A stretch of DNA of 58,970 bases, the filler included, from Sphacelaria rigidula (Eukaryota): assembly GCA_964200075.2 (NCBI GenBank). It is 10 parts of 10 records of this genome, joined end to end, with 100 filler letters (N's around TTAATTAATTAA, not from the genome) between each part and the next. Parts side by side here need not be neighbours in the genome. Positions count along the whole stretch, not along the records: positions 5,909 to 11,715 come from CAXNAA020024309.1; 9 more parts are not named here. The stretch is one strand, 5' to 3'. The translations under genes and the position numbers were made by a program. The notes below the pieces were generated by a model. It made no database searches. It worked only from the letters and a program-made list of their open reading frames with translations, and was not told where the DNA came from. This document shows, piece after piece, positions 1 through 58,970 of this stretch (positions are counted from its first letter, which is position 1; each line of letters starts with the position of its first letter).

Positions 1-1018
1 AGATTTTAATCCTCCGGGTTTTCATCCTCAATCAATAGCACCATCCTCAACATCGATGATTGGCTGTTTTCGGCCACGGGTCTGGACAAAATGGCTGACG
101 TGAAGAAAACACGTGCTCATGTATACTCACGACTGACCGTCTGCAGCGGTACTGTACTGTACTGTACCGTACCGTACTAATCGGTCATACTTTTGATCGT
201 GCGGGCAAATGCTTCCTGATTTGCAACCGTCAGATTCAAACGAAAAATCCTGCTGCTGAGTGTGCGGTACTGTTATGTATCCCAGGGTACTGGATTATAC
301 TGGGATCTTTCTCCGGGTCGATAGTGATGAAAATACGTCGAGGAAGCCCTTTTCTTCGCGTTTCGTTTCCAGTACGCGCAATGGGCCAATGACTTCGCCA
401 TCCACAGCCCGCCTGTGCGTCAGCACCGCAACACTGAGGCGATTTCGCTGCCCACGAATCTGGCGTTCGGCCACGGGTCTGAACAAAAGGGCTGATATGA
501 AGGTGATAGGTGCTTGTGTACGGCTGTTGTAGCGGTACTTTACTGTACATTACTAGTCAATCGACCGTACGGGCACATGCTTCAGATTGCGTCAGTACAC
601 CCCCGTCTAGGGTGCGACTGCCAACACACGGGTGCCGCGTCCAGAGAAAATTACATTTGCTTTTCGTTGCACATTCCTAATTCGCTGACCGTTACAAGGG
701 TGGTATCACGTCTCAAATCATGTACGGCCTGAGTAGTGTTTTCAAACTGCGGTGGCTTTATGGTCGCGGCAAAAAACCTGGTGCGTATGCATGGCACTTC
801 GTGCGTGTGTACGACATACTAAGCAGAACAACATGGGCGGAGCCGCACTAGCGAATGCAGGGAGCCTGCCAAGGTGCGGTGTACTGTACCATCACAGTAA
901 CTATCTTTGTTTTGGTTCTGAAACAAGTCGGTGGACTGACTTCCCATAGTGGTACGGTCGTACCTGCACAATGATCGGCCTGTTGCCAACAGCATCGATC
1001 ACAAGATCCGAAAAGACG

Positions 1019-1319
1019 GTCAACCATTAGTTTCATAATCATATGGTTGAACAATTTCGGTGATGTCTGTTTTCGGGACCTTGTTATTTGTGTCAACCAT
1101 TTTTTCCGACCATCTGGTAAACAGCCGAGCCCTCGCTCATCATATTGTTGAACAATTATGTGGACGTCTGTTGTCGGCACCTCATTATTTGTGTCGACCA
1201 TTTTCTCCGACCATCGGGTGAAGGACCCCTCCCTCATCGTATTGTTGAACAATTATGCCGACGTCTGTTGTCGACACCTCATTATTCGTGTCAACCATTT
1301 CTTCCGACCATCTGGTGAA
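1019..1319. repeat. ~99-bp tandem repeat, about 3 copies
   Basis: TGTC(A/G)ACCATTT..CCGACCATC.GGT recurs at ~1091, ~1192 and ~1289, each with TTGTTGAACAATT..GACGTCTGTTGTCG nearby. A shorter unit starts at ~1019. Confidence 0.9.
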
Positions 1320-1417
1320 CCCTTAGACCGAGAGGTTAGTCTTCTGTTGAATCGGCATCAATTTTAAGTGAAAAAAAGTATGCATGACCCAGGAAGACTA
1401 ATCTCGCGGTCTAAGGT
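1320..1417. mobile_element. ~100-bp piggyBac-like MITE
   Basis: Inverted ends CCCTTAGACCGAGAGGTTAGTCTT / AAGACTAATCTCGCGGTCTAAGGT, flanked by TGAA and TTAA. Homologous to 20848-20947 and partly to 50455-50525. Confidence 0.7.
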
Positions 1418-3009
1418 TTAACAGCCCTCTTTACTGAACTGTCTCATTGGTGAATACTCGTATTGCTGCGTATTTTTAAAAAGTTCGGTGGGGCACGTTG
1501 CCCTCCCGTGAAGTTATCGCTTCGGAACTCGTCAGGGTTAGGACAACTCAAGATTCATACGAGTTGACTCCCGATGAACGTTCGAGGACAAGTCGTGGAC
1601 GTTCGGGTCATCCGTAAAGTCACGGGGGTATGAAGCTGGATACTAAAGGTCATGCACGAGTAACGAGTTGGACATATTTCTTCGACTGCGTTGTGTCACA
1701 CGACCGAGAATTGGAAAGCATGTACGGGTCATGGTTCATGTATGCGTGATGAGTAATTGAAAACACATACTCCTCCTACACCCCGCATGAAGCAAAGGGT
1801 GAGTTACATGTATCCATTCCGTGGCGTTTATCGAAGGGTGTCATATTCATCCCTACCTTCATCTCACACGCACCGAAGGAGGACAATCTACATGACTCTT
1901 GTCATCGAATCTGTTATCTCGCACGAATCAAAGAGTAAATATTGTCTACCCAGGAGTCATCCGGCATAAGGTCAATAGTGATAGTAACATACTCACGATG
2001 GAAAGCACGCATAGTCATGCGCCCACGACTCCCGCGGTGCGGATAGTCCATCTGGATTACTCATAGATGAGTCATGAATCACGGGTGGGGAGCGAGAACA
2101 AGTCGCCGCCAACGGCGGGCCCGGGCGATTCGTTTCATGTGAAGAGCCGAGAAGTCACTACGCGCATGGTGCATGTTCCAAAAACAAAAACACACCTCAA
2201 GCCGCACAACCGGGAGGACGATACTAGTTCGTGTGCCCCCCCCCCCCCCCCCCCCCCATCCCTTCCCCCGCGATCTTTGAATGTTTCATGATATCGTCCA
2301 CGCCGAGGTATCCCAGGGTACTCTGGAAGTTATAATATTTCCCTCAAAACCTTGAGCTGTGGTTCATAATTTCGACCACCGTGAGACGGTACCCCCGGTA
2401 CATCTGTTTCTTCATCGAGGCGAATCCGATTACCGTTGCTACGCGACGTGATGCGATCTCCATTCAAGTGAAAACGACCTCCCACCATTCACAGTGAACG
2501 AAAAGGCAGTAGAGTGGCGTATATTTATGTATACACTTACCGGTGAATATCAATGAAATATCCGAAAAATCGAGTCACTGAACTGTCGACGAATCGCCCA
2601 TCGTAATCCAGAGTTCACGCAAGTAATCATCCACATCACCTTCCATCTCACCCCAGTCCATTTATCAACAGCTTCACACCTTCTCCAGAGCAAAAAGGAA
2701 CTCTTCCCTATTCACGGTGATGGTAATATAGTATTAGTAGTGCAGAAACCTTCAGATTTGGGTGCGGGATTTGGGAAAAGGCTTCCCCCGCTGCCTCTTG
2801 CCTCAACATACGCACGAATATGATCAACTATCATTGGCGTGGCAGCTGCAAACCCCTCCTCACTGAACACCACTCCCGAGCCGTCGACGGAATTGCCCTC
2901 CAACAGCTGCAACCCAAGAACGAGGGATATTGAGGCAGCTCCAACTGCGTCAATCTCGCTTACGAACAGCAAACAAATGGACATCCCGCTCATCCCGGTG
3001 GCTATCTAA

Positions 3010-4331
3010 CTATCCGTCAGCCCCGTGACCGTCTCCTTCCTCGTATCCCCTCTGCTCGGCGATGAAGTCGTCGACATCGCTTTCATCATCCCCCTCTTCG
3101 GGCCCCTCGGAGAGCTTGCTGGCGCTCTCGGAGGGGTTGCTCAGCCGCTCAGGCACGGCGGCCAACTCTTGAGCGTCCGACAGCATCGGCACCTCTTGGG
3201 GGATGCTGTCGTAGCTGCCGTTGAGAAACAGGACCATTTCGTTCTGTGCGGCATCCAAGCGGTTGCGGCACCCGGTGATCAGGCGACCGGCGGTGCTGAA
3301 GACGCGCTCCAAGATGGCCGCGGATGCCGGGATTGACAGCAGCACTCGGGCTGCGCGTGCCATAAGCGGGTAGAGACGTGAGCCCTCCAGGGTCTCCTCC
3401 CGTTCAGCAAGCACGAAGCGGTCAAATTCTTCCGCGCACAGCTGTCGTTGTGTCTTCGGTGCCGATCCCACTGCTCTGCCCCTGACGATGTTCCCGAACA
3501 TGCCGCTTTGAAATAAGCGCGCGGCCCCCTTTGATGCTGCCTTCGACGGGGTGGTGGAGCGGCCCTGGCCCCCGCTGGGGCGCTTTTTCTTCTTGGGCCG
3601 AGCATCGTTCGCGTTGGCACCCCTGGCCTTAGGGCTTCCCACGGTAGTGGGCTCAGAGCTTGATTCGCACTCTTCCGCCATCTTCGTCATAAGCTCAACG
3701 ATCTTATTCCCAACAACTGCCCGTATGCGAACAACCATGTCGTCGCTCTTACAGATGGAAGGAAGGTCAGCTCGGCGAGGAATGGATTCATGCAGGTTGC
3801 CATCTCGAAGAGGAAGTCGGGTATGGCACCCGGGGCATCCAAGTCGTAACGCTTGAAGAAGCGCTTGTCGACCGCCGCGGCCAGCAACTTCTTGGTCTTC
3901 TTCGTCACGTTCTGAAGAGCCGTCCCCTCGCACAAGACGGGTTGCGCCGTCTCGGTGCGAACCTCGACGGCCGCAGTCACGTGTCACTTGGGAGTCTGAA
4001 GGCGGAGGGGGGTGCCCTCCTTCAACAGAGACACCCTGATGGCCACGGGGTCGAGGAGCGTCTGGACCCCTGTCGGCACGTTAGTGCTCTGAGTTTTCTT
4101 CATCAGAATCGCAATGGGCTTCACCAAGGAATATAGCTCCTCGATGCTCGCCTTTGAGGCGGACAGGGGGAAGGCCACTGACTCATTCTCCGAGTAGTGG
4201 CCCTCCAGTGCTGACCAGTTCGAGAGCACTGTTTGGAGCACGCCGCACGTTGATATCTACCGCTGAGGCACCGCATTGACCAGCTTGTTGCTCTTGCCGT
4301 AAAGAATTGCCTGAACGTCTTCGAATTTGAC
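3010..4331 (-). pseudogene. hAT-family DNA transposase, C-terminal part, decayed
   Basis: hAT dimerization motif YPLMARAARVLLSIPASAAILERVFSTAGRLIT..RNRL. Upstream NAVPQR*IST matches the hAT xRW motif with W mutated to a stop. In-frame TGA at 3984-3986, frameshift near 3750, and a CAG acceptor before 4331. Confidence 0.9.
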
Positions 4332-5908: not shown

Positions 5909-6889
5909 GGGCCCCACAAAGAAAAAAAAATTTTCCCAAACACCAAAAATAAAGGAAAGGTCCCCCCCCCCCCCCCCCCCCATCACACACACTTGTACAT
6001 TCATAAGTGATTGTACGCTAGCGTGGGTTTGATGGATGTTGATGTTTCGTCTCCAACGTGAGGTTGACAAAGGGCTGAGTGTGCTTTCCAGTGAGAAATG
6101 TTCCACGTGTATTCAATTCAATCCTTCACATCTTACTTCGTCCTAAATTGTGGTGAATTGCGTTTTGCTCGTGTTTGGTATATATGCAAATATAGAGATG
6201 CATATAGAAAGGTTCCGCGTGTACGTCTCTGTCCTTGTTTGTGCGGCAGCTACAGACGCAGGAGCAAGCAGCAGGGAGCAACCCGGCGGGGGGGCAGCGG
6301 CATTCTGGTGACTTCAGGGTAGCAGGAGGCGTTGCTACCGTGGGAGGGGTTGCGCCGGACACATCCCCGTCTATGCTTCGCTCGATGACGATGTAGAACT
6401 CGTGTCATCCCTGGCGCCCGTGCTTTCTCGCCTCTTTTTGAAAGCGTCAAATCGGGGAGAAAAAAAAATCGAAAGTCAAGGAGCTTGTGGTGTGTTTTTG
6501 TTGAACTGAATGTATACTTGCCTGTATTCTTATGGCTCATGATTTGGCCACGTGTAATGGTGTGTTGATCTCTTGAAGAAAGTGGAACACAGGCGAAGGC
6601 GCGCCAGTTTTGTATCCGTATATAAATATACTCTCCTTTTTCATTTGTTCCGTGTTTGTTTTTTTTTCAGTACTTCGTATTGCTTACTGTACTGTGCCCT
6701 CTGCATAGTTGTATGTAGTCTGTTTGCTTTTTGTACGCATCTGATGCTCTGTACAAGGTCTTTAGCAGAAACGGTCGGGATGTGTACCGTACCATTCAGT
6801 TATTTTCCAAAGGTGTACTCATGATATTGCATGCCATAGTTATGCGACCATTTGACCTCGCATCCCTACGAAGATTGGGTATATTCCAT

Positions 6890-6950
6890 GGGGGGGAGGG
6901 GGGGGGGGCTACTCATTTGTCAATTGCCTTAGTCGTTTGACCATTGACCA
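6890..6950 (-). mobile_element. LINE 3'-end fragment (family A)
   Basis: TACTCATTTG..TGCCTTAGTC.TTTGACCATTGACCA matches the 3' end of the LINE at 37929 and the copy at 29369-29436. Confidence 0.85.
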
Positions 6951-9084
6951 TAAGGGGGCGGGGAACATTCCGGGGTTTTTGAATAACTTGGGTCAAAGGA
7001 TGTGTTGATTATCAATGCGCGATGACTTCTGTCGTTGGTGATTTGGGGGTTAGAGGCAGGTCATTGTGTACTAATTTCTAATTTCAGTTTCGCTGGGTAG
7101 ACCGCGACAGGGAATCTTGTTTGAACTTTCGAAGCCTGAAGAATTTTGCAGGGCTGTGTCCCGTAAGGTATACCCGCAAGTGTGGGAATTGTGGTTCACA
7201 TCCTGAACCAGACCGAAACGTGTATCGAATATCCTGGTATGATCGGGCAGTGTATTAACCTTTGGTCTGAACCGTAGCGAATGGTTCGGGAGGGTATATT
7301 AACCGGTCAAATACCTCTTTCACGCTTCTGTAAATACCCGAATGTCACCCCGAATACCGCCAAGAGCTCGGAATTTTGTTTTTTTAATATTATCTTGAAA
7401 AATCCCAGTACGACCGGCTGTGGAATGCAGATCAAGAAAGCAAGGAGGTGCTCAGCAATATGCAGTTTTTGTTTTATGTAGTCGGAAAAAACTGCGTGCA
7501 TATCATCTATCTCTTGTGTCGACGTTGGCGTTCGAGGACCATGAATCGCACCCATCCTTGGACCATTCGGCCGGCGCCGTTTTCGCCATCCGTTGGTTGA
7601 TGGATTCACATCGGGCACACTTACTTAAAAGGCATGAGGAGCGTCGATCTGAAGGTGTTTCCGATCCGTAGGTACCTGAAATATGAGCATGGGCAAAGTA
7701 TGAAACAAAGTTTTCTTCGCACACGATGTGACTCCTCCTGAAGATGTAGTACAGTTTTGATCCTCTGTGACCGCTGCCTGGGTTGAGTCATCTGTCGAAT
7801 AGGCATCAGTGTTGGTTGAATAATATTATCGAAATACCCAAATGAACCCCCCCCTCTCCCCCCCACTCTTGCGGTTAAAGGGTTCATCTTGGCTGTGTTG
7901 GCGCGTGCGCGCTTTTTCCCGCTTCGTGATCGTTATCGAGCGCCCTGGGGTTCCCATCTTGCTCTTCGTAGCGTTTTTTTGCGGGAGGGGGAATGGGTGT
8001 CTTGTGCCCGGTGTGGTACCTGTTGAGCAAAAAATGTAGGTATGCACTTGGATGGATTTTTACCGATTTCTTTGTTGCAAAAAGGCACTTTTTTACTTCG
8101 TTGTTGAAAGGTGCGTCGGGATCACAATCTTGATTTATGTGAAGTTGAACCATCCGTAAGGGGGTTCCCCGTGGGGTTGGACGAGTGTGTTGTACTGAAA
8201 TCAGAGAAAATTATTAGTATTGAGTGTATGTATAGTAAGAACGGGAGTGTGTCACATTCCATTTGCACTTCGCTGAGGCGAAACGAGTGAACTCGATAGG
8301 GGAGGGGGGAGAGATCCCGTGTTCTGGCGAGGAGCAAATAATTGATACGCAAAATCTGCCCCATGATTATGTTACATGCGCCTCGGAGGACGCTGGAGAG
8401 TAACGCCACCCGCGTGGGTGTATATTATGTTTGTAGTGTAGTAGTAGTTCTTTGTTCTTTGTTTTTTGTTTTTTTGTGTGGCATGCAAGTGTTGTACAAT
8501 GACCCATGTGCCGATCGCGCAGTGGGTTGCAGGGTGCAGCGCCTAGATCTCAGGGTAAAATTTGGACGGCGGAGCATGTACGGTTGCAAGGTAATGGTGG
8601 CCCTTGTGGCAGGTAGGTGCGACTTCTTGTGTTAACGGGATTTTCGGAGGCAATATGATGGTTATGGGGATATGTGGAGGCACGAGGAGTTGATCGTTGG
8701 GTCGGGAGTTTTTTTCAGGTTAGAGTCTTTGTCGTGTGAGGTTTGACGTGGGGTATTAATTCAGCGCACTCATGGTGATAAACCAGCTGCCGCGGGAAAA
8801 GAGCGAGAGCAGGGGCGAGGTGGGACAGCTGGAGGTTTGTAGTTTGTCGTGCTTGGGCTTTCGACAAAGAGTCGATCGGATGACAGCGCAAACAACAAGG
8901 TTTTCGTGATATTGAGAGGAGAGCGCTGATTTAGAGTGGCGTTAATCGTTCGCTCTAGCTTGGCCAATCGTTCATCCCGTATGTGCTTTTTTTTGCCTTT
9001 TATCATTCGCGTGTATTGACAGCAACACGTCGATATCCTACTCAAGAATGCCAAGGGCCTCAGTGGCAAGCTACTACAAGAAGC

Positions 9085-9116
<32 letters not shown>

Positions 9117-9140
9117 CGGGCTTCGTGGAGAACTTCGGAA

Positions 9141-10445
9141 GTGGAACGATTAATTATCCAATTGAACGCTTTTCACTCTCAGTCGTATCCTCTACTCAAT
9201 CTCACGAAAACGTTGTCAAATGTAGTGTGTCGTGGTCGGGCTTTCTCGAAGAGTCCGTCGGATAATTGTGCAAACCTCGAGGCGACGAGGAAACGTAACA
9301 TGATGGGAACACACAATTTTCATACAGTATATTGTTGACGCAGATGCACTGAATCTTGCGCCTGAACGTATCCCTCGAGCGTTTCGTTTGGATCTCGTTT
9401 GGGTCCATCTCTCTGTCTGCTCATCCCCGGCGCAATTTCGGCAGAATCTACCACGTTCTCTCTGTGCGGCCGGTGATATCTTCTCATCACTAATGGTGAC
9501 ATTTCCGAGGGTGCCCACAGTTGACAGGTGATTATAGTTTTTGAGGTTGAACACTTGAATGGGGTTCAATCGACATATCTTTTTTGCAGGAATGGCGCGA
9601 AACAGTGACACCAAGGGAAACCATCTTCCCCCCCCCCTACAATCTGCAGCAGTTCAGCAGTTGTGGCTAGGTGCACTGAACGGATGCGGTGTACAAGCGT
9701 GTCGATGACTACACCGTCAGAGGAGTGACGGCAAAGAGGAAGTTCCTCGCCCGTACCCTTTGCGTGTCCTCGCCCGACGACTCCCAATCGCTCGAGAGAC
9801 TGGCATCATGCATGTTACCAGCATGTACCCCATTACCCATGTGCCGGTAGGTAGGTTATTGCTGCACAGCTCGCCAAATAATATCGAGGTGTCGAGGTGT
9901 CGTCTCTTCATGTCTGTGGAGCTTACCAATGCAAAGATCGGTTCCTCTCTGCCTCTCGTTTTGAACAGGACGCGCCTCTGTGCGCTGTAGTACACGTCGT
10001 TGGAAAACAGGGCGATGTTCCCGTCATCGCTACTGCTCTCTGCCATACACATGCCAGCAAGGACATTGCTGCGGCAATGAGAGATCCAGCCGCAACTGAG
10101 GAGATGTTATTCGTCGCTGATTTTACCCGACATGTGTACTCGTACCTGTGTGAGAGCGAAGACAAGAGAGTGAGTGCCACAGACCAGTTCTGGGGATGTA
10201 TGAGAGATCAAAGACTTGTGGAGACCTCCTTGTCATGCGAAGTGAAAAATGATACCTATGGTAGGGACCCAACTATTTCTGGCGTGGCGCATGGGGGTGC
10301 CTCTACGGTGCAATCTCGAGCACACACCAATCACCCGCTGCGTGTGTCGCGTTGGCTTTCGACGATTCCCAAGTGAGGAGATCATTCATTACAAGCTGGG
10401 GCGAGGTATGATCCCATGAGAAACAAGGATGCTCTATGATCAACT
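9141..10445 (+). pseudogene. Unassigned multicopy coding family, copy 1 (stops and frameshifts)
   Basis: DNA homology to 10930-11715 (-) and ~54220-55220 (+). Shared peptides include LCVSSxxDSQSLERLASC, CKDRFL, KQGDVPV, DFTRHV and GCMRDQ. Confidence 0.7.
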
Positions 10446-10929
10446 GCGGCTTCCCTGTCCTCCCGCCAGGTATACAAGGAGGTCGGCATAGATTTTGCAA
10501 TCGCATGTAACACTCGCGGGGAAACAAATAAGTTTTCCTCTGTGAAATTCCGCGTTTTCCAACCTGCAAATTGTTTGATGCCCGTTGCTTTCTAATAAGA
10601 ACGTCAAACCGTCAACTTCTGTACCGTTCTGTACTGATTGCGGTTCCCAATGACAGCAAGTTTGGTACCGCTGTTTTACAGTATCTTCGAACGTGTGGAC
10701 GGACCCAAAGTGGCCACTTTCCCTCCGACCATGTTTATGTAGTTGAAAAAATCGAACTGTTTTGCTTTTACAGAGATTGCGAAATTTGGTACATGTTGCT
10801 ACGCCGGGCGACCTCTACGCAGACGGCAGCCAGTCCAGTAGAGCGACGAAAGCTAGCTATGATCGGGTGTGCCTGCCGTACTGCCGCCAGCGTTGCTTGA
10901 AAGCCACAAGCCCTTTGAGGTTGGCGGTT

Positions 10930-11715
10930 GATGGCGTGGGTGTCAAATGCAACGACAAGTGGTTGATCATAGAGCACCCTTGTTCTTCGTGGCTTCATGT
11001 GTCGCCCCAGGAGGTAACGCGTGACCTCGTCAGATCGGAATCCATTCTTGAAAGCTTCTGTACCGAGGTGCTCACGCAGCCAGCGCGTGCTCTAGGTTGC
11101 AGCATGGACGCACCCCTCTGCACCACACTCGCAACGGTTAGATCACTACCATAGGTATATTTTTTCACTCCGCATGTCAAGAAGGTCTCCACAAGTGTTT
11201 GATGTCTCATACACCCCCCCCCGCCAACTTGGGTCTCGCACGCTGTTGTCGTTGGGCACCCAGAGGGTCGCTCACATACATGTCGGGTAAAATCAACGAT
11301 AAATAGCACCCCCCCAAGTTCAAATTGGATATATCTGTTGTTTTCGCGGCAGCACCGCCCTTGCTGGCATGTGTGTGACAGAGAATAGTAGTAGCGGTGA
11401 CGGGAACATTGCCCTATTTTTCAACGATGTTTTTCAGCGCACACAGGCGCGTCCTGTCTTAAGGGAGAGGCGGCGAGAAATCGATCTTCGCATTCGTGAG
11501 ATCGACCGGCTATTGTAAGCCAGGAGAAAATCTCTCCGCAGCTCGATGTTTCGGCACATGGAAAATTGGGCACATGCTGGTAACATCTATGAAGCCAGTA
11601 TCTCGAGCGAGAAGTAATCGCCGAGCGAGGACACACAAAGAACACGGGCGAGGAGCTTCCTCTCTGTCGTTACTTCTCTCTCTGGTGATATCGTCATCGA
11701 CACGCGTGTACACAG
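10930..11715 (-). pseudogene. Unassigned multicopy coding family, copy 2 (cut by contig end)
   Basis: Inverted homolog of ~9685-10445. Peptides ECEDRFLAASPLRQDAP, LFIVDFTRHV and GCMRHQTLVETFLTCGVKKYTYGSD. Confidence 0.75.
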
Positions 11716-14701: not shown

Positions 14702-15126
14702 GGGATACCCCGGGAAATACCGAGGATATATCCGGTAAACACCGGACACGATGCGATCCCCACGGTGCAGCAGCTGGTCCAAAATTACGCGAAGGCCAGA
14801 AGTTGTCAGAGCAGGTACGTATTGTTTTCACTAGTAATATATACCCTGATTCCCCCGATTCTTCTGTTTGGATCATTTCGAGTGAACTTATTATTATGTA
14901 GTCTGATTATCTGGGTAAATGGATATAAATATTTTATCATCGTTACGGTGCTGAACACTGTTTCATCGTTCATGTCGAAGATGATCATCATACTCAATAA
15001 TATTCAACGTGCGAACAAGCAGAGAGAAGGAAACGAGAAGGAGGAAAAGCATAAAATAAACGTGAGGGGTCGCAGGAGGCATACAAAATAGACAACAAGG
15101 TACCAAAATGCCAAATAAATAACCGC

Positions 15127-15159
<33 letters not shown>

Positions 15160-17396
15160 TACCGTTATTACTGCGCCATTTCTGTGGTATGGCATGAACA
15201 CTACCTCTTGCCTCTGTACTTCAGCGCTCATCTCCCACTCCAAATTCTTTTCATGTCTGCCATTCCGGCGACAGAATGTCGTGGCCGGCGCACGTTGTGC
15301 ATGCGCCGCTGTCATGCACACAGCATCCGCGACACACCTTCGGCGATGCAAACGATGTTTTCTCTCTGTCTTCAATATTTCATTGCGCTCACCATGTCCG
15401 TGCCGCCCCCGTCACCTCTAACCCTTGACTACCTGTGCAGGCGGCCTTCAGGCTAAGTAAATCGCTCGGAGCACATGGACGGAGGGTGCAGATACCTCGG
15501 CGGGACTGTTTCACCGCGGCATGCCCCGTTCTGTGGGAGAGATTCCGTCGGCGGTTCGCGAGGCTTTCGCCTGGCTGTGGGATAGGGGGTCGTGTGGATT
15601 TGCCAGGCGTCTACGGAAAGCCTCCACGCTTTTGGTGTGAAGATATAACAACTACGTGATGAATGGACGGAGGGGGCGGGGGCGGGAACTTAAAACTCAC
15701 TTTGGATCCAGGATAGTCTGCCCCGCCAGAAGTTGGGGTGACGGTTCCCACCCGCCCGTCACGACGAATCATACATCCTTCTGTGGTCGTGGTGAATTCG
15801 TCGTTTCCACATGTCGGCGCCGACGCGTTGTGGTGTTGAGGGCAGCAGCGAACCGTGAGGACGGCGGCTGTCGGGGTTTGCGGATGTGTTGCGCTCCATG
15901 CCGCGGTATGGATTCGTGTGATGAATTTGGCGCACATCGCACGAAAGGTATCCCTGTTAGGCCCACTGAGTCGCGGACCTGGGTCGTGGGTTCTGGGTAC
16001 GAGGCACCTCGTATTGCGTGGTTCAGTTTTTCTTCATGGCACGTGTGTTCGGCGGGCTGATTTGTTGTTGCCATCCTTCTCGGCTTTCCTCGTATTTTGT
16101 AGCCTTCCTCCGTGTGTTCCTCGTTGTCGGTGTCTGTGATTGTAAGTGTAATATCTCGGCCTCTTGGGGGCTGGGGGTGTGTGCTTCACATACCTGTGGT
16201 GATGAGGTCTACACATATGCTTCGCCTGTGATCGTTTGGGTTTTTGGTCTTGTGTTTTTTTTTATTCCTTCATCATAGGGCTTGGGTTTCGGTGCACGAT
16301 GATACGCGCCGAAGCGACGGCGCAGAGACCGTTTGTTCAACGACGACGTTTTTGCGTTGCCTCTGCTTGATCCTTGGAGGACCTGTGCGAATTTTTCAGT
16401 AGCAATCGTTCCACGGGTCGACCTTCTTCATTTGTGCACTTTTGGCATCCGATTGCTCTCGTACTGTGCTTTGCTGCGGCACGCACGCAGGGCCACTGTC
16501 TCTCCACCCGGCGGTTACTCCGCCGACGTGCGAGTGGTCCAGACGCGTGTTCAGATGTTTTCATAGATCGGCTTCTGTGAACTCAAAAATGACGGGGGTT
16601 TGAGTGGTTGGCGAGAGTCCGTCTCACCTTTGAAGCTCTCCACTCATCGACTGGCGACAACCGGATGCCTTGTGCCCGGTGGGCGACTCTTAGACATGGA
16701 TGATGTGGATCATTCTCGGGTATGCATCGATGGGGCTTAGTGTGCCGGCTTGTTGTCGGCTGTGCATTATTCTGGTGTCGGTGCAATTCGGCGCCATATT
16801 ATCACGCCGTGGGAGGTACCTCTCATGAAAAATGCCCCGCTCCTCCCTGACGACTAAACGCAAGCAAGAAATGAGAACCCGTCCCCCGCCGGCGAGGGGG
16901 TCCCTCGTTGTCATAAGGAGACTTGCCTTCATTCTACATAATGATTTCCCCGCGGTGGTCAAGGTCTCTAATCCAACGAAAAATTATGGTCATAGCGTCA
17001 GCCATCTTGCCCGCAGAAATAATTGCATATTTGAACTGAATCAAACGCGCATAGCGAAAAGCAGATTCGAGAAAATTAGCGTCGCGGAGACCACCCCGTT
17101 CTATTTCCACCCCGTTCTATTTCAGAAGTATCGGTGACATAAAACAGGGGGTTTGATAAGTTGCGGGAGCAGGTATCGTTGAGGATGGGTCGTGGGAACC
17201 TGCATAATAATCGCAGTCATCATAAACTACGTGCTAATGCACGCTCCGGTCGCGATATGGCGATTTTTCATCTTGGAAGTGAAAGCACCATCCGCTATTC
17301 CTGAATTCCCCTTCTACTCGGAGGTTATGAACATCGGGGTGGAGAATGCCTGTCGGGAAATGAACGGGTGTCGAAATGATTTGGAATTAGAAGAGA

Positions 17397-29436: not shown

Positions 29437-30416
29437 NNNNNNNNNNNNNNNNNNNNNNNNNNNNNNNNNNNNNNNNNNNNTTAATTAATTAANNNNNNNN
29501 NNNNNNNNNNNNNNNNNNNNNNNNNNNNNNNNNNNNTGGAATACGACCTATTGCCCATATCACGCACATCGAGAACGCCTTCTATTTAAGCGACTAATAT
29601 CCGCCGTCACACATCACCCCCGTGTCCTCGGTCGTTATCCAATATCTTCCCAGAACCCTCGAAAATCCCCGTGCGTCCAGTCATTATCCAGATTATCACT
29701 ACCAACTCAACGTAACGGCGTATTTTCGTCACAGCACCCCCAAAGCGCGTTGGACGAAAATGGATTAACAAGCTTGACACGTAGAAAACGCCAAAACGAT
29801 GAGTAAGTCACAACTGAATACCAAACTCACTCGTAATGCGAGCAGCAGCGGCACGAGTCACGCGCATTTACGCAACTCCTTCGTGAGAAATTCCGGACCC
29901 ACGTACGCTCCTCAACTTCGAAACCAACCCTGTCGACCAGCACGATCAACGAACGATCGTCTGCTTCTGCCACTCGGACAATACCAGCCATCTGGAATTG
30001 CCCCTGATTGAAAACGTGCTAGAACACGTCCTTAACGCCAGCCGTAACATTAAGCTGCGAGTCTGCATAAAAGCTCAAACGAGCTACATGGGCGGTCTGA
30101 ACACGACTCGAAACAATATTCAGAATCTCAAACACGTGCGGGTGGTGAGCACCAACCACTCTCCATGGACTAGTCCACGATACGCTGTATTGAGCGCCCA
30201 TTGCACCGCGGGCAACATGTCCACCCACTCGGAAACCGCTCTACGCTACTGGAGAAGAATAGAGGGAAGAGCACGAACTACTTCCTTGACCATGCGTTCG
30301 CACGTTCCATTAGACCGCGGAGAATACGCCAACGCAAACTGGTGATCAACGCGCAAAGCCTCTCGCAATCGGGCCAAGGTCACATTCTGGAAAAAATGCG
30401 TGGCGGTATCACTCAC

Positions 30417-31544
30417 CTACACACGCGGCACCCCCAAAGTTTTGCAGCAATTCATCAAATATGCAGCGGTCGATTCAGCAGTACACACTGCTACTGGTTT
30501 CAGAGACACGAAGTTGCTCGAATCATCCATGATTACCGAAATGTATCGAAACACAGCATCCTCCGCCAAACCTTGATAAGCTAGCGGGCCACTCTCGCCC
30601 ACGTACAAGAAGTCAAAATGAACGACTTTATTCGGCATGGTCCCGTGGACTGTTTCACCGAGCGGGCGGGGAACATCATCGCCCGCCCTCGGGCCAGCAC
30701 AGTGAAGACACTGGCGGAAAAATTCGCGCACATGGGTTTCTATCCCCTGCCAAACACAACACCCTTGCAGGCGCACGAGCGTCGCAGCCAAACCACGATG
30801 CCCGGCGTCGCGCACGTGCGCGCAAATCACCAGACGTACCTGCAACTGCTTGTCAGTACTCGGGATCCATAAAACGTTTCGGTTACGTACATGCACATGA
30901 AAAAGACCTTTATTGTCCAAGAGAGCAGTACCAACGTCCGACTCGAAAGATTGCACATCCCCATCTTCGGCCGCGAGTTCTTTCCGTTGCGCTTGGCGGA
31001 CAACAGATTTGCACGGCATCGAGCCATCAGGTTCACATGGACCATACACAGCCACAGCGCGCATAGGCAAAGCCGGAATATTCATCCAGCGCGGAAGCAC
31101 GTCACCCAACGCATTACGGTCGCCTGAAATGTGGCAAATCGAGTGACGAAACTGGTCAAGAAGAGCTTTCAAACCCTTCAAACGTTGTGGCAACGCTTTC
31201 GACACAGACGTAACGCACGCTTCCGGGTTGAAAATACATACGAGATTTCGATGATCCGTGAAAATATGAACGCCATCCCACGAAAGATGCTCCAAACGAC
31301 GAAAAGTGCTCACGATAGCAAAACCTTCCTCGTCAATTGTGGCCCAACGCAACTGGGAACCCTTGAAATTATCACCGAGGAAAGCTAGCGGTCCATGCGT
31401 CATATCCTCAACTGGCAAGCGTCTTTGCATTTCAAGTTTAGGCACCTGCGTGACAGAACAGCCCCAATGGCACTCGGATGCATCCGGAAACATTAGCACC
31501 TGACGATCATGACGATGATGAAACAGCGTCACGGCGTGAGCCAC
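30417..31544 (-). pseudogene. Gypsy RNase H-integrase segment
   Basis: MFPDASECHWG, FKGSQLRWATIDEEGFAIV, HIFTDHRNL, the HHCC zinc finger and VVHFDFLYVG. Confidence 0.92.
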
Positions 31545-31787
31545 CTTATCCTTCGCTGACGCCCATGCCTGGAACCTGTCCTCCGTTCACGATGTAGGCG
31601 GAATAGAGTGGTTTTTTGCAACACGCTTCGTCCGCCTCGCAGCACCCGCCATAAGTTCTTCGAGGAAAAAACGCAAGGGAGCTACAGTTTCTTCCATACG
31701 CGGCAACGAGGCACGCAGCCACTTTATCGCGTGCAGGAATTGCATGAGTTCTGCGGCCGTCTCCGGGCGCCGCATGTCAGACATGCC

Positions 31788-33157
31788 TTACAATCTGACA
31801 GGGTCATGAGATACGCGTCCGTGTGAGTACACTTTCCCACACAACATGAGTTCACTAGCGATGAATATCATTTTGTGCGCCGCCGTAAACAAATCAACAC
31901 CATCTAAACAAGCCAAGATAGCATCAAGCGTGTCTAAACGTTTTTCTTCCGTGTCGGCGAAAAAAAGAAGATCACTCACACCCATATCTTGTATTTGAAG
32001 CCGACGAGCAGTTCTGTCATGATGCCTTTACAATATGCCGTGACATTCAGCACGCCTTGCGGAACTCGCTTCGGGGTAAACAAACCAAACGGAGTCGTGA
32101 TTGTGAAAATCTCCTGCGCCTCCTCCGCCAACGATATCTGCCAGTAACCTTGGAGGAAGTCCAACTTGCTAAGAAAAAGAGCACTCAACAGATCACGCAT
32201 GCCCGGCTCTTGGTTGGGCATCACACCCGGCGACTTCTCAACCTGCTCATTCACTGCCTTGTAGTCGCTTACCAAGCGAAACGGGTCTTTCTTCGGAACC
32301 GCCATCGCCGGACTGGACCACACCGCCTGCAAGTTCCTGAACACCAGCCCGAGCGCCAAAATAGCCGCCATGCACGACGCCAACCAACTCGACTTCACAG
32401 GATCGTGCCGCTGCGGCGTCGTCTTCACCGCGGACGCCCCAGGTTTTAGCTGAACGCGCATGAGCTCCAAGCGCGCAGGGGGATCACCCCCCAGCGCACG
32501 ACGAAACGCGTTGACACGGTGATGTAATATGCCGCGCAGGCGCTTCGCTTTCGAGACGCTGAGGCCTTTCGCCACAACATCCGTCACGCTCTCCTCCAGC
32601 GCGACCTTCCGAGCGGACTCCTCTTCCGTCGGATTCATAAACATCTTCGAGCCACGCTCTACCAAGCGTTCCACCGCCGCATCCCGCTCCTCGGTCACCT
32701 GCACCCCAGCCTCCTGAAAATCATCCACCGACAAGCTCACGCGACGACTGCCCAAGTAGGCGGGCGTCTCCACGTGCGGATCAGGTGGAGACACCCGCGT
32801 CTTGATGGAGTCCCGCAATCGCTCATACGGGTCGACTCCAAGATCCTGAAGCGTCGGCAACCGCAGAAGAATGACGCCATCCGACCCCGGCATAATTGCA
32901 AACGAGATCGGAGGAAACGGCGCCGGCCCCCAGGCAGTCATGAAAGCCAGCTGCAGCGGAACAGTTCGCTCCGTGACGGAAACATGCTGACCCGACGGGT
33001 GGCGGCCTGCCGCGCCCGGAGCAAAAACGGGATGCGCAGCGGCACACCCGGGAGAAAACGCTCCAGCATTTCTACAATCTGCACCGACAAACTCGTGAAG
33101 TGGGCGCCAGAATCCAACACAGCTCCGGCTCAACGCTTCCGTTGATTTGGAAGACAC
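31788..33157 (-). pseudogene. Gypsy protease-reverse transcriptase segment
   Basis: LDSGA in an alternate frame, WSSPAMAVPKKD, RLVSDYK and TPFGLFTPKRVPQG. The YxDD region is frameshifted and degenerate (WV/SDLLFF). Confidence 0.92.
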
Positions 33158-35689
33158 AGCTCCGCAGGAACGTACTTGTCCGCGAACTCCACTGGCACTT
33201 CATCCACCGACCGATGCGCCGCTGATCCTACTTGACGCCACGGCTGCGCCGGCTGCGCAGGCGACGACGCCCCGGTAGGTTCAAATGGCACCGCCGGCGG
33301 GTTTGACCTCCAGCCAGCAGACCAAAAACTTGGAGAAACTCCGACCAGCGCATCAGCAGGCATCGCGCCTGACGCTGCTGCCGGCGTCGCTACCGGCGCC
33401 ACCACCGGCGCCGGCGCAGTGTTCGACACTGCAGAAGTCGGTCTAACCTGCACCGCCCGTTGCGGAGCAGCAGCACCAAGGGCGGCGCGGGACCCAGAAT
33501 CAGACCCATGCTGACGCCGCTGCCCCTGCTGCTGCTAGTGCTGGTGCTGCTGGTGCTGGTGCTAAGAACTAGACTGCGACCCTCCACCGCCGGAGGGTCC
33601 ACGGCCGCCATCACCCCGATCACCTCGTCCTTTGCGCTTGTGCTGTCGATGCTGATGGCGCGCGGCATGAGACTGCCCAGACTCTCCACCGGAAGACGTT
33701 GGACAATCGCGCGCGTCATGGCCGACCTGGCCACAGCGGTGGCAGGTGATGGTCGCAGCGTGGCCGGCCGATTTTAAGCCGTGGTGGCGCAAAGACGTCG
33801 TTGTGAAGGTGGACGACTGACCGAACACCTCTATCTTCCGCCACTCCTTGGCCTCAGCCACGACGGTGTCCATCACCAGGTAAGGGTCAACCTTTTAGTC
33901 TGTTTGGTGCTGCAACTTTACAAGCACGGCTGCTCAAATTTTTCCGGCGTTAACCCCTCCACCAAAGCCTTGGTGATTACGGCAGTAGGGCCGGGAACAA
34001 ATTCACCATCGAGGGAACGATATACTAGTTCCACGTTCGGATTTTTTTTAAATTATTCTTCCAGATTGGACAGGATTGGCTCCACCCGCTCTAACATCGT
34101 CTTTCCCCGATACTCCATGGCGACAGCTTTCGCCACGGCCGCGGACGCTTGGGACAACCCCACCTCGGCGCCCGTGGCATGCCCAGCATGCTTTTTGATT
34201 GCCGCAACCAACTGCGGCGGGGTTATTGTGCTCCCATCATATTCCACAGGCGCAAACACTCTTTGCATATGTGTGGGTACCTGTTGAGCCATCGACACTA
34301 CCTGATGTCGCACTGCATCCCCTGCGTTTGCGTGTTCGACACGCTTTATATACTCCGGTTACTTCGTATAGAAAGTGCAAGATGCACTCTCGGAGTACCT
34401 ATCCCCGTATTGAGGAGGTCGCAACCCTTCCCGCATAACCACGGGCGTCACGCTGGACGTACTACTCGAGCCGGTCGCCATAGCTTCAGCCGGCTACCTG
34501 CGAACCTTTCGCAGGCCAGCGGACCTTCGCGAATTGCACACTTCCTTGCTTCGTCGCTGCACCACACAGTTGAAGGAGCCTCCAAACTCCCGCTGCACAC
34601 AGCTTCAGCAAGACTCCAGTCTGGACCAATCACAAGCCAGCCGCCTTTCTGCAGCTACCATCAGCTTGAACCCCCTTCACGCGTCCGTGATGCTTCACGT
34701 TGTCCCCAGCTGCCAGACTCCTCCGCCGAAAATCTTCCAGCAGATTCCGCTAGATACTAAGTTTAGCACTCACACTAATATCGATACGCCAGCCAGAAGA
34801 ACTGGTGGATCACTGCTGTCGAGGGACTCCTCAGTCTCACTGGCCTCAGTTACTAGTCGTCAGCCTTCACAACATCTCATTATCAGCAGTGCCCTTCCAG
34901 GTACCAACCTCCTACACGCGCAGGGTATCATCCCCGTGTCCCCGGTCATTACCCAGAATCCTTCAGAATCCTCGAGAATTCCCGTGCGCCCAGTCATTAT
35001 CCAGATAATCACAATCGGGCATCGAACCCTTCATAGAGGTAACTAATATCACGATTATTCTGATCTTTAGTTCTAGGTCGCTCACAGCACAGCGGGGAAA
35101 CTCGCCCCCCTCTCAGATCAGTACGTTAAGCGGTACCTCTCTCAGCCCGCGCGCTCCACCACCGCCCGACTCCTCCTTGCACGAGGTCAGCGAAAAAAGT
35201 CTTTCCAACACATACCCGTTGCCGCCGTGCCGAGTTTTTGCGTTGGAGTCAGGCTACCAGCGTGAAGCTACACGAGTTATTTTCGTGTGTGCTGTGAAAA
35301 GTCAAAAACGTCAGCCACACCCCTGCATACCTGAAGAAACACGNNNNNNNNNNNNNNNNNNNNNNNNNNNNNNNNNNNNNNNNNNNNTTAATTAATTAAN
35401 NNNNNNNNNNNNNNNNNNNNNNNNNNNNNNNNNNNNNNNNNNNCCATTCATGTGATGGGGTAGGTATGAGAGTAGTGAAATGAAGCAGGGTCATGATCCA
35501 AAGTCACATTGTCTTGGAGGAGGTGGTTGATGAAGGCATAGTAAAATTTGTGCCCTCGTCCCCCGTCCCCCTCCCGCCACGAACAACGCGAGAACTGTGA
35601 CGATGTACGGCCATCTCATCGTGTCATTCTCCTCAACACCCATCTTTTGTCCCCCACGACGACCAACCCTGCTCTCGCGGGCGCTGCAG

Positions 35690-49205: not shown

Positions 49206-50202
49206 TACTGCTCCCCGGAGCATAATCTTCACCATCACCCGCATCAGTAAACAATACCGCTGCCATCCCCCCAATAGTTCCTTTATCTGGGTCGAATGAC
49301 ACCGTAACCGCATGAATTGCTATTACTAATGCCCGCGATATCACCGTTTAGTACTCCAACTTGCCCGTACGTATTTCGTGCGAGCCCCACTGCTAGACGC
49401 AGAGGCAGAACTCGTAGAGTTATTTCTGGCAGAGTGTCAACCCCCGTGGTCTGCCGGCGCCAGAAATAAATGACGTACTCCGGAATCATGAGAGGAACAC
49501 GGCTGACCGCAAGAGCTACAAGAGCTGCACTGCTCCCAAAACGGTGAGGCAGCCCTCGACAAAAGTTACTTACACTTCTCGACCCAAAAGAGCGTCTCCG
49601 GGAAAACAGGAGGAACAGCCGCAAACAGTTACACAAGTAGGAGCGATGCTACGGTAGCCCCCTCGACAAAAGTGGCTGGCTTGAGGAGGCAAAATCTACA
49701 TGCGACTCAAAATGACTGAAGACGAGCACGCCGAGCAGCTGGGAAGTCCCACGTTTGGGATAGTCTTCACCGAAGTCGCCCATAGGGGGCGCTGTATGCC
49801 AATTTTCTTCTGACAGTTTCGGGGCTGGGTTGGATGGGGGGAGGGGGGGTGCAGGGCTATCGCAGCATATCTCGTAGGTTCCCTGCAACCGCATGGCCAA
49901 CCGGGAGTGCCTCGCGCGGCCTGCTGGGTCATCTCGCCACTTTCATCGTTGGACACTATTCTGGGATACCGAGTATGGCCTGGCGGCCGTACGGGTTGGT
50001 GATGATTTGAAGAAATCAAGATACGCAAATTGTTGTCAGATCCCGCTGGGAATTGCCTTTACGTGCGGCTGACACCAAGAGGAGGACAACGGTTGCTGTT
50101 TCCGCCCCTAACTCGTCGCCGTTCAGAAGTTGTGGTAAAAAGCAAAATATTGAGGAAAATAACTGCAAAGACGTACCGAGTTTTCCACGCTCTCGGGAAA
50201 TC

Positions 50203-50233
<31 letters not shown>

Positions 50234-50731
50234 CTTGGATTTTTTCGCCAGAGGTTCGAGAGTTAAGATCTAAGACGACTTTGGAAAAAGGAGCTAGCTT
50301 GTCGGCCATCCTAAGGGCGTCATCGATGGTGTTTTTGTTTTCTCTGCTACGGAGACTGAAGAAAACTGGATCTTGAGTTCGAAAGTTCCCTCAGATGGAC
50401 CCAGTAGACTTTGCATGACGTGGCCAACGAATTCCATGGTTAACATGAGTAATTTGTTGAATCGGCTCCAATTTCACTTGAAAAAGGTATGCATGACCAG
50501 ATGGACTCGTAACCTCGCGGCCAACCGATCAAAAGAAATGAATCGGTCGATTATTGTAGAAACTCAATATTAATACTTTTTTTAACCATTCGACCAAGCG
50601 AACGAGGATATATGTTGGCTTCTTTTCTTCCTATCGCGAAGAGTGAGGCAAAACATCACAACCTAATGGTATATGGCGCCATCCGTTCGAACAAGAATGT
50701 TACATCATAAGCGACACGGGGTTGGCCACCG

Positions 50732-51080: not shown

Positions 51081-52566
51081 ACCTGTCCTACGTGTGGAAC
51101 GTTTGATCCCAAAGTTTGGGAATCGGGAGATACTAGGCATCCCTTCTACATTCCGAAAAAGATCATATCTGCGCTCATCATTGTCGAGCGACGTACAGGC
51201 TGACCGTTTTTGAGGGGGGTCCTGAGACTACCCAGCCCCAGGTTCTGACCCTACAGCTTTTTTGCTGGATTGAAGCAATCCCAATCGTTTTCGTGTATAA
51301 ATTAAAAACTTTTGATTTTTTCCAACCTACTTATTGCGCTATTAATAGAGCAAAAAAACTGTGTTTTTTGGGCCAGTGGCGATCGATAATACCCCCTGAT
51401 GCACAAGGTACTTCCTCCGTGTCACCCCGACAACACCAATTGAGGATTGTGTTCTTGACACGACCTGCTCATCTTCCCAATGTCTATCGACGCTAGGACT
51501 TTTGACCGCCAAGGACGGGTACTATACGAGAAAAATCATAATAGTACCCCAAAATGAAAATTGCCCAACCGAGCTCTGCAGCACGGGCGGGGGTGAACCA
51601 ATTCCGATCACTCGAATGAATGATTTGACCGACCCTTGTTATTATTGTTTTTACCTATTCACTGCGCTAGAGCCGAAAAAAAACGTATTTTGGACCAAAA
51701 ACGGTCAATAACACCCCCTGTTAATTCAGCTCGGGAGTCGTTCAATTTTGAGCGCAGAGACGATCTTTGTTTCGAAGTGTTGAGGGGATGCCCTGTATCT
51801 CCCGACTCCCAAACGTTGGGATCAACCGCTTGCTGGGGTGGGCGGGTGGCACGCGAAAAAAAAACATCAAAGATCTCCGGCTACGAAAACATTACAAAAA
51901 TATCCTACTTCATATGGAAACTACTATATCAGATTTTCGAGTGAAGGAAGATATCGATTCCACGGATGGTCTACCCTGGCGGTGAAGGGGTTGACACTTT
52001 GCAGTTACTTCTGTTTTATTACTCTTTTTAGTTTGACGTTCTCTGCTGCGCTAAACATTGATCGACACTCCTGGTGACGAACTGAAGATATACCCTTCAA
52101 GTCCCATGAGCTGGGATGTTCGACCGTGTCCGATTGTGGAGACGTTTTTTCTTCTATGGTTTTCTTTGGCGTGTTTTGGGTTGAAACTCTTGTTGTTGCT
52201 TTTCCCATCGTCATCGTTTCTACCATGCGGCCGAAAGGTCGAGGGAAAAAAAGTACGCCTGAAAATAGCGATATTTCTTGATTCTCGGGAAAATGAAGAA
52301 TCCTCGAATATTCCCCAAATGGGTCATTCTTGACTCGAATTTTGAACCAAATATACATCCGTCGTTTTTTTCTTTTTTCTTGGGCTTGCCTTCCCTTACG
52401 TCGCGTTTTGTCTCTCCAACGATACCAACTTTAGTGTCGTACGTACACGCGCGCCGTTGGGGTTAACGCTCCCTGTACCACTTTTCTTCTTGTTGCTACT
52501 GTACTGCATTCTTTTTTTTCCCGCGCTTACTGCTGTACTGCACACAACGCCGACTTCTTTTATCTT

Positions 52567-52602
<36 letters not shown>
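52567..52602. repeat. (ATG)12 microsatellite
   Basis: Read directly from the sequence. It explains the poly-Met ORF. Confidence 0.97.
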
Positions 52603-52616
52603 TTGATGATCGACAG

Positions 52617-52794
52617 GCCCGAGGTCACCAGCTTGCGTTCAGGTTCGCAGGCTCCACAGCGGACAGCGTACAGTTCAGCCAGTTTGGTGAACGCCAATTC
52701 GACAACCTACTGCTATTCGCGCCGTCCCTCAATGGATCTAAAAACAGCGAGGGGGTGGTCGTTGCTGACGTCATGGAGTTCATCGAAGACGGGG
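52617..52794 (+). CDS. DDOST: Oligosaccharyltransferase 48-kDa subunit (OST48/WBP1), internal exon
   Basis: CAG|...|GTACGT. ARGHQLAFRFAGSTADSVQFSQFGERQFDNLLLFAPS...VADVMEFIEDG matches the OST48 N-terminal pattern RG.L.F...GE..YDNL..F.PS...FID.GG. Confidence 0.88.
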
Positions 52795-53399
52795 GTACGT
52801 TTATGTTGAGCCTTTTTCCCTATTAGTAATAGATACACTACAGAACCACGTGGTTGATAAGAACTTTACCGGAGGTTCATCACTTGATTTGAGTGTGAAC
52901 ATCCACATTCGGGTCTTTAGCGGAGCTGACAGTCCCGTGTGGCAGTCCCTTGTGCTCCCAGCGTGTACAGAACGCGTTTTCGTTCAAATCTTCGCCTGCG
53001 GCTGGGGCGCCCTTTGCGCCCCCCCCCCCCCCCCCCTGCGGCGGACTCCCGCCGGCGATGGTCANNNNNNNNNNNNNNNNNNNNNNNNNNNNNNNNNNNN
53101 NNNNNNNNTTAATTAATTAANNNNNNNNNNNNNNNNNNNNNNNNNNNNNNNNNNNNNNNNNNNNAACGAAAAAGGTTGAAAAAGGGGAAAGAGGACAGAA
53201 CAGTTTGAGGACAATGGTCTTGTGAATTTTGCATGCATGATCATGAAAACCCCCCCCCCCCCCCCCTTAAACATCAGGGAGAATGACGGTTTCGGTCAGC
53301 GCTGTAAGCTCACACAGTCGGTAAAGTACGCTGAAACAAATCTACGCAATCGAGGGGCATTGGGGTATTAGCCCTACAAAAAATCTCTGAGCACCATCG

Positions 53400-53700
53400 C
53401 TGTACGTGTGGGAAAACATCGTTTTAGGCTTGAACCTCATATTTGTGTATAACCTCATTTCATAGAATTGTCTGTTGATTTCCCGTGGCACTCTCTCCTG
53501 GACTCTGTGGCATTACTGTTGTATTTCTCTTCCAGGGCCGGCCACGCCACTTGCCCGTTGCCGACGCCATCCTCGTCTGTCTTGCTCATGTGTCTTGTGC
53601 GGTGTCGTGCGCGGAGAGGTCTGCTCTGAGAAACTAAATACTGAGTAAATATTGATTCGCTGGGTCCCATTTCGTCAGGGTTACCGTATCACGAGGCGGT
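53400..53700 (-). mobile_element. Copia gag fragment
   Basis: GNGQVAWPALEEKYNSNATESRRECHGK resembles the Copia gag (UBN2-like) AWxxLxxKY motif. Confidence 0.65.
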
Positions 53701-54219
53701 GTATCGTTGCCGGTAAGAATAGTCTGCGGTCTCGGTTAGCCTTGCAGCGTATCGGCGACCTCCTTCTGATGAAGTGGCAGTATAACCCGAAGTTTGTCTT
53801 AATGCTCCCTGAATCTGGCTTTGTCTCTACCGTCAAATATCGGACAAAGCTGCAGCACCCCTTGGATGCCGTTGCCGTTACGCGCCATCGCAAATTAAGT
53901 CGTTCTTAAGCATAGATCCCTTAGTGATCCAAAGCTACTACTTCAGATTCTGAAGTTCTTCCCAGAGCCCGTTTTCTCCGTGTACGCCAAGCGAAAAATC
54001 GAGGCTCAATAAACCTGTTAGATGTCGGAGAAGGTATCGGCGCTACATTGCTCTCTAGGGCACCATTCTACTTGCCCCTTGATCACACACAAAACATCAT
54101 GTTACCAAGCGTGGACCAAATCCAAAGCTCCATTTCCTAACAAGGAGCATCACCGTTCGTTTGCGGCAGGGCAAAACGGTGGGTACCACCCCCGGAGAAG
54201 ACTACGTCCCTATCCCTGA

Positions 54220-55220: not shown

Positions 55221-55839
55221 CATGGTATTCGAAAGAAGACTGGCCTCGAGGAGATCAGTAACCTCTCGGACACACATGACTCGGAGACCAGCAACATTCG
55301 GATATGAATCTTCGATTGGGCCGTTGAGGGATTACAGTTTGATGCAAGGAAAACGTGACTCGTGGTACTCAACCGGAAGAGCTGTACTGGTGTGATAAAC
55401 TCCAATAGAAAAAGAAAAGAGGCGACCAAACATCGTGTAGTGCTACAAATTACTTGCGATGACAGCACTTGTCAATCGGTGGTAGTCCCATTCGGAGACA
55501 GTGTTGCTACTGCAGTACTCGGGTACTGTAGTGCGGAATAACTCGAATTTAACGTAAATTACTACGGCCATCCACCATGGGGTACATGTTAGCCCAGGTG
55601 TCCACAGGGCGTCGGGTCCCTTTTCATCTTAGTATCATTATTCCACTGTGGATCATGACCACAGGGAACACGCGCTTTCCGTTGCTCCACGGGTTGGAGG
55701 TGGATCCCCCGTGGCGATCCGGTCGGTAAGCCAAGAGCTGACGCCGTCACGTACTACTCTCGAGAACCTCCCAACAGCGCCAGGTCATGACGGTACGTCT
55801 CAGGCATAGGATGTGCCTCTACCGCCCTCTGTCCCCCCG

Positions 55840-58900: not shown

Positions 58901-58970
58901 TATAAGTTAGTAGCGTGGGCACTCTAGTTCCTCTACACCACAGGGAAATAGGTGACAGCGCAGAGATTAC

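Follow-up and report, generated by a model that had tools for sequence, protein, structure and literature searches.

A high-copy, non-coding repeat of about 0.9 kb beside a Ty3/gypsy polyprotein remnant in Sphacelaria rigidula is probably a long terminal repeat

The DNA analysed here (58,970 nucleotides of the Sphacelaria rigidula assembly, hereafter the window) is assembled from ten pieces, each about 5.8 kb long, with N44-TTAATTAATTAA-N44 linkers between them. Because the window is composite, features at piece ends are cut artificially, as is the repeat copy that stops at 11715. A unit of about 0.9 kb is present in three copies. Two of them (c1 and c2) lie within one piece, at 5909-11715, and the remaining one (c3) lies within the last piece (piece 10, 53165-58970). 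The features of the unit and its surroundings are:

9541/9548-10445/10468, plus strand: copy c1, read as a solo or orphan long terminal repeat (LTR); from blastn, boundary alignment and motif search
10932-11715, minus strand: copy c2, read as a solo or orphan LTR with its 5' part lost at the piece end; from blastn and the end of c2-c3 homology
54323/54330-55222, plus strand: copy c3, interpreted as 5' LTR of a Ty3/gypsy element that is decayed and truncated; from blastn, boundary and depth jump
55223-55240, plus strand: candidate primer-binding site, with TGG directly after the terminal CA of c3; from sequence reading
55633-57928, plus strand: frameshifted Ty3/gypsy polyprotein remnant (N-terminal region, protease and start of the RT); from tblastn
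58732-58831, plus strand: weak, partial match to the 5' start of the unit; from an nhmmer profile of the three copies, E 4e-5

The copies share 67-72% DNA identity (blastn), which confirms the three copies aligning at the DNA level that the sequence-only reading of this region had described. c1 9689-10444 matches c2 11713-10962 at 69.3% over 789 columns (E 4.5e-90), c1 9643-10249 matches c3 54421-54994 at 71.7% over 614 columns (E 3.5e-85), and c2 11160-11713 matches c3 54995-54467 at 67.1% over 580 columns (E 5.2e-45). Conservation comes in blocks. It is 76-84% at 9648-9840 and 9936-10035 and 26-60% between the blocks, which fits regulatory non-coding DNA. Tblastx at E<=0.01 revealed no copy in the window beyond these three. 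The "up to six candidate copies" proposed earlier are thus reduced to three, plus the weak match of about 100 nt at 58732-58831. In this match, TGAGGTTTAAC at 58752 stands against TGAGGTTGAAC at 9542 in c1, and according to a motif search, the motif has no further exact match anywhere in the window. The pairwise alignments at 58732-58831 are not significant individually. The stretch may represent the beginning of a related LTR family.

Homology between c1 and c3 sets in at 9546/54328 (boundary alignment). Upstream of this point, the best alignment score is 28, while shuffles reach a mean of 25 and a maximum of 36. As the score is within the shuffle range, 9141-9540 (with the peptide "ITNGDISE") and about 100 nt of copy 3 lie outside the repeat. 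Both stretches had been counted as parts of the copies, so the earlier delimitation holds for the repeat but not for these two starts, where similarity is at shuffle level. The loss of homology at the same point in c1 and c3 suggests the true terminus of the unit. The 5' end of c1 is at 9541-9548 (TG at 9542 and 9548), and its 3' end lies between 10445 and 10468. c3 starts at 54323-54330 (TGAAT at 54330) and ends with CA at 55221-55222, with an uncertainty of about 20 nt. Homology between c2 and c3 extends to 10944/55215, and a few bases beyond, both show ...GCCA, which is terminal in c2 (10933-10932).

c2 is inverted relative to c1, and the two stand tail to tail about 480 nt apart. The c1-c2 identity of 69%, compared with 72% for c1-c3 and 67% for c2-c3, indicates that this pair is no recent inverted duplication. 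Its placement may be due to chance. (TA)n microsatellites are found at 9074-9130, ~15125-15164 and ~50197-50236. The one at 9074-9130 is outside the repeat unit and gave rise to spurious miRNA-type Rfam matches.

The sequence-only reading had taken the unit for a gene or protein family. When block 9643-9811 is compared with 54420-54589, the six frames score 87.7, 85.8, 84.5, 83.5, 75.8 and 74.4 bits (tblastx), and the remaining blocks likewise show equal similarity in all six frames. Hence, the likeness is a property of the DNA rather than of any single frame. Indels divisible by three make up 1/10, 2/15 and 3/16 in the three pairs (6/41 overall), and mismatches are evenly distributed across the three codon phases in the pairwise alignments. 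Nei-Gojobori dN/dS in the frames chosen by that reading is 0.70 and 0.94 for block A and 0.75 and 0.95 for block B. These values fall inside the range of 0.44-1.9 obtained for the other sense and antisense frames.

The longest ORFs of the copies are 164 aa (c1), 141 aa (c2) and 198 aa (c3), and they occupy differing parts and frames. The 164-aa ORF of c1 was equalled in 34 of 500 dinucleotide-preserving shuffles, and an ORF of at least 164 aa is present in 25% of 154 other 900-nt stretches of the window. In c3, the ORFs of 198 and 192 aa are unusually long (equalled in 5/500 and 0/500 shuffles, respectively). Since they overlap in two frames, a single protein would not explain them. Building a majority consensus from the three copies does not lengthen the ORF, which reaches at most 127 aa on the plus and 150 aa on the minus strand, and the consensus peptide quoted earlier arises only by frame-hopping, at different places in each copy. 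Within what was examined, dN/dS is essentially near 1 and no ORF is intact, a combination that the sequence-only reading itself had associated with a non-coding repeat.

No Pfam family was found for 13 ORFs of the region or, at E<=1, for the 16 members of the peptide alignment, and the best profile-search match among PDB sequences had an E of only 0.6. Structure prediction with AlphaFold2 on 14 sequences gave no confident fold (pLDDT 48.7, pTM 0.24). The predicted fold is without helices and would be unlike capsid domains. ESM Atlas recognition was 1935 and thus below the value of 2300 reached by 91 of 100 known proteins, which proves nothing by itself. With no favoured frame, codon-blind indels, neither an intact nor a consensus ORF, and no family or fold, the gene interpretation is not upheld. 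The open frames within the repeat copies would be chance ORFs.

ORFs from other copies are present in public protein sets. The c1 ORF gave 13 matches at E<=0.001 among 1.84 billion representatives (phmmer), all of them short ORFs of 58-210 aa. Nine of these were looked up, and all are singletons on contigs of 963-2,508 nt. The search with the c3 ORF gave three matches, two of them new. By frame comparison, five database ORFs contain both the upstream block and the core. The two parts are joined in the frame of the sequence-only reading in two of the five (P0007 and P0029) and in the other two frames in the remaining three (P0009, P0010 and P0011). c1, P0005, P0006 and P0008 agree in the frame of the third block, and c3 and P0029 read it in a different one. 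In four database ORFs, core and third block share a frame. We conclude that the database ORFs are gene-caller output from many decayed copies and no protein family. If all copies decayed neutrally after one burst, a frame signal would also be absent. With this caveat and the four ORFs that keep one frame, we regard a coding origin as unlikely rather than impossible.

Downstream of c3, the ORF at 57647-57934 is 67% identical to P0001 (E 6.7e-32), a protein of 899 aa with RVT_1 and two RNase H domains. The 90% cluster of P0001 has 27 members, including named Sphacelaria rigidula records and the 2,264-aa polyproteins P0025 and P0026, two intact relatives encoded on contigs of 9,611 and 9,059 nt, respectively. 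The domains of P0025 are RVT_1, RT_RNaseH, Integrase_H2C2 and rve, which is the Ty3/gypsy order, and no Pfam gag domain is found within its first ~500 residues. Residues 287-594 of P0025 match 56298-57194, residues 592-725 match 57184-57588, and residues 785-874 match 57659-57928 (tblastn). As the matches are in three frames and then stop, the element is frameshifted and cut at ~57930, just before the RVT_1/RT core. Residues 120-171 match 55633-55785 weakly (E 0.028 in a 2.5-kb database), and the placement of the first ~290 residues of the polyprotein depends on this one match. The start of the polyprotein is extrapolated to ~55276-55440, which places it about 50-220 nt downstream of c3 in the same orientation. 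Piece 10, which extends to 58970, contains only the 5' copy of the unit, and the element breaks off at ~57930. P0066, a C-terminal homologue of the polyprotein, has a precomputed Chromo domain.

In JGI metagenome contigs, 34 pattern matches to P0025 were obtained and none was confirmed, and in IMG/VR nothing was found for P0025. Among the 120 listed of 244 matches, there are no read-through ORFs from the C-terminus of the polyprotein into the repeat. Tblastn also gave a weak cluster at 10444-10518 (best E 0.031), which a profile built from 113 C-terminal segments failed to confirm. The metagenome locus L001, obtained by a 21-nt DNA pattern match, was rejected as chance, with only those 22 nt common to both sequences.

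Abundance was assessed with Logan contigs from four public runs (X1, X3, X4 and X5) of two studies, which were aligned to piece 10 at a likeness of at least 80%. The summed contig word depth is not equal to copy number, and the 80% threshold favours conserved parts. The depths in X1 along piece 10 are:

53553-54134: 55-102
54135-54328: 337
54329-54522 and the next bin to 54716: 197,488 and 242,240
Rest of the unit, in bin order: 4,717, then 35,013, then 274
55299-58014, polyprotein region: 292-3,851

Low-depth DNA and conserved block differ similarly in the other runs, with 27-51 vs 162k-178k in X3, 61-104 vs 188k-235k in X4, and 4-10 vs 24k-44k in X5. In all four runs, the conserved block of c3 has about 2,000-4,000 times the depth of the adjacent unique bins. 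The jump is between the bins 54135-54328 and 54329-54522, where c1-c3 homology also ends. These data show that the unit is a very abundant repeat and that the outer edge of c3 meets low-copy, apparently unique DNA. The term "high-copy" used in the sequence-only reading is therefore appropriate for 54329-54716, and "mobile" is supported by the Ty3/gypsy polyprotein remnant that the unit adjoins.

Further very high-copy repeats flank the element of piece 10, at 53165-53552 and 58015-58970. Their depth peaks in X1 are 437,710 (53165-53358) and 356,244 (58597-58790), and a 13-nt tandem repeat is located at 58144-58175. Contigs of three of the four runs skip 893 nt at 55797-56691, with 7 other letters in between. 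The skipped stretch contains the repeated peptide motif PPLATSQH...TDDSS, and the skip indicates that the N-terminal region of the polyprotein differs in length among copies.

Within the unit, the 5' block (54329-54716) is about 50-800 times deeper than the internal region in X1, an excess above the expectation of two LTRs per element. The 80% threshold, solo LTRs and related families may explain this excess, and an amplification history of the unit's own also fits. The conservation of the 5' block (76-84%) is above the expectation for a U3 region, which counts against reading the unit as an LTR. A self-spreading module of ~400 nt (54329-54716; c1 9648-9840) with thousands of copies, either as a non-autonomous LTR swarm or with a kept function as promoter, enhancer or small-RNA source, appears improbable to us. 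Its variant, an LTR that once carried a short ORF, is less likely.

The repeat is real, abundant, without coding signature, and adjoins a polyprotein. We consider it probable that the unit is the non-coding LTR of a Ty3/gypsy (Metaviridae) retrotransposon in a brown-alga-like genome. An LTR contains the promoter and polyadenylation signal of its element, supplies the repeats for strand transfer in reverse transcription, and provides the terminal bases recognised by the integrase. Recombination between the two LTRs of one element leaves a solo LTR. In piece 10, the polyprotein follows the end of c3 (~55222) on the same strand after just a short leader, and the ~0.9 kb of the unit is a typical LTR length. 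The order of unique DNA, unit and polyprotein corresponds to a 5' LTR layout, and no other candidate for the 5' LTR is present. c3 would accordingly belong, as 5' LTR, to an old element that is now frameshifted and truncated. The other two copies, c1 and c2, have no adjacent polyprotein and would be solo or orphan LTRs. The copies are about 30% divergent and look dead. As a second LTR was not seen for any element, the LTR status is deduced from position.

TG is found at the start of the unit in c1 and c3, and CA at its end in c2 and c3; as the boundaries are known only within ~8-20 nt, such dinucleotides are easily found. The CA of c3 is followed by TGG, and the window contains no tRNA genes with which this candidate primer-binding site could be compared. 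The flanks of c1 share 5 exact repeats in 1680 boundary combinations vs ~2.9 expected, with GAGGT at 9543-9547 and 10479-10483 as the best, so there is no significant target-site duplication of 4-6 bp. The c1-c2 spacer has no homology to the leader after c3. In the 30 nt after CA, the similarity of c1 and c3 is not significant, as 8% of random windows score as well. A terminal inverted repeat (TIR) DNA transposon or MITE, or a SINE, was considered and rejected: the search for inverted repeats at the ends of the unit found none, and there is no pol III-type head. Rfam at E<=1 detected no tRNA-, 5S- or 7SL-like part and only (TA)n noise.

Other elements in the window are unrelated to the unit or of a different kind. 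A second, unrelated Ty3/gypsy element is located in piece 6 at 29537-35343 on the minus strand, with the following domains:

33565-33894, minus strand: zf-CCHC
31979-33199, minus strand: RVT_1
30420-31586, minus strand: RT_RNaseH and Integrase_H2C2

An 87-nt direct repeat (29613-29699 and 34927-35012), 84% identical and 5.3 kb apart, is probably what remains of the LTRs of this second element, and this remnant is unrelated to the ~0.9-kb unit. The 356-aa ORF at 3013-4080 (minus strand) matches Dimer_Tnp_hAT with an E of 1.6e-10 and is a hAT transposase fragment. The ORF at 52467-52823 (plus strand) has a sub-threshold match to OST48_N (33 bits vs a cut-off of 36, E 5e-8) and could represent an exon of the host gene for an oligosaccharyltransferase subunit.

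The LTR assignment has to be weighed against three other explanations. The unit could be another non-coding mobile repeat, for example an LTR from a non-autonomous family of the TRIM/LARD type or an unclassified interspersed repeat, that came to lie beside a 5'-truncated gypsy element by chance or was captured into its LTR. We regard this as unlikely, although the depth of the conserved block greatly exceeds that of the gypsy interior, high-copy repeats crowd both ends of piece 10, and c1 and c2 have no polyprotein beside them. The end of c3 is just where that of a 5' LTR is expected, and its strand is that of the polyprotein. DNA of unique depth borders its outer side, with no alternative 5' LTR, and neither terminal inverted repeats nor tRNA-, 5S- or 7SL-like parts were detected.

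The unit could also be a decayed protein gene of this element or of an unknown mobile element, for instance a gag or accessory ORF upstream of pol, with a frame signal erased by neutral decay after one burst. Such a gene would agree with the missing Pfam gag in the first ~500 residues of P0025, with the public ORFs of 58-210 aa from other copies (13 at E<=0.001 and three from the search with the c3 ORF), with the core and third block kept in one frame in four of the database ORFs, and with the unusual length of the c3 ORFs. We nevertheless find it rather improbable. No ORF is recovered in the consensus, all three relative frames occur where blocks are joined in different copies, there is no Pfam, PDB or Atlas relative, and the fold prediction is unconfident and, as modelled, without helices and unlike capsid domains. 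In addition, the common terminus of c1 and c3 and the unique DNA outside c3 leave no space in which an LTR could precede a "gag". A virus-derived gene multiplied in the genome, for example from a phaeovirus, had been suggested as well, and nothing beyond the absence of a known domain speaks for it. The c1 ORF gave 7 pattern matches in IMG/VR contigs with none confirmed, a coding signature is missing, and the repeat adjoins a retrotransposon polyprotein; we therefore consider a viral origin hardly credible.

A literature search found no paper on Sphacelaria rigidula and retrotransposons, and the literature consulted does not name the repeat family. Brown-algal Ty3 elements (ECR and other lineages) are described as having the order RT-RNaseH-integrase and a C-terminal chromodomain (bioRxiv 10.64898/2025.12.07.692804). 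The C-terminal homologue P0066 likewise carries a Chromo domain. Like Ty3/gypsy LTRs, the unit is non-coding, measures ~0.9 kb, has candidate TG...CA ends with TGG after the 5' copy, and lies directly upstream of a same-strand polyprotein whose relatives carry RVT_1, RT_RNaseH, Integrase_H2C2 and rve. Its isolated copies resemble solo LTRs. In contrast to such LTRs, the abundance of the 5' block greatly exceeds that of the internal part, and no LTR pair, target-site duplication or tRNA match was seen.

TRIM and LARD elements are non-autonomous LTR elements, in which abundant LTR-like units occur without a coding interior. A likeness to them would account for the excess of the unit over the polyprotein (related: PMC4350172). 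The difference is that c3 is attached to a coding interior and that the window contains no short LTR-interior-LTR unit. An ORF inside an LTR is known from MMTV, in which the LTR carries the superantigen gene. A comparable LTR ORF is the only way to retain the protein idea of the sequence-only reading, but the unit, unlike the MMTV LTR, has no conserved frame, intact consensus ORF or fold.

The repeat is an ordinary component of the genome. Chance ORFs in abundant LTRs have been called "proteins" in public sets, where 16 were found, and they can mimic an orphan multicopy gene family. With the unit classified as an LTR, it will inflate neither gene counts nor searches for new mobile-element proteins, and its abundance makes it a useful marker for repeat annotation in the Sphacelaria rigidula genome.
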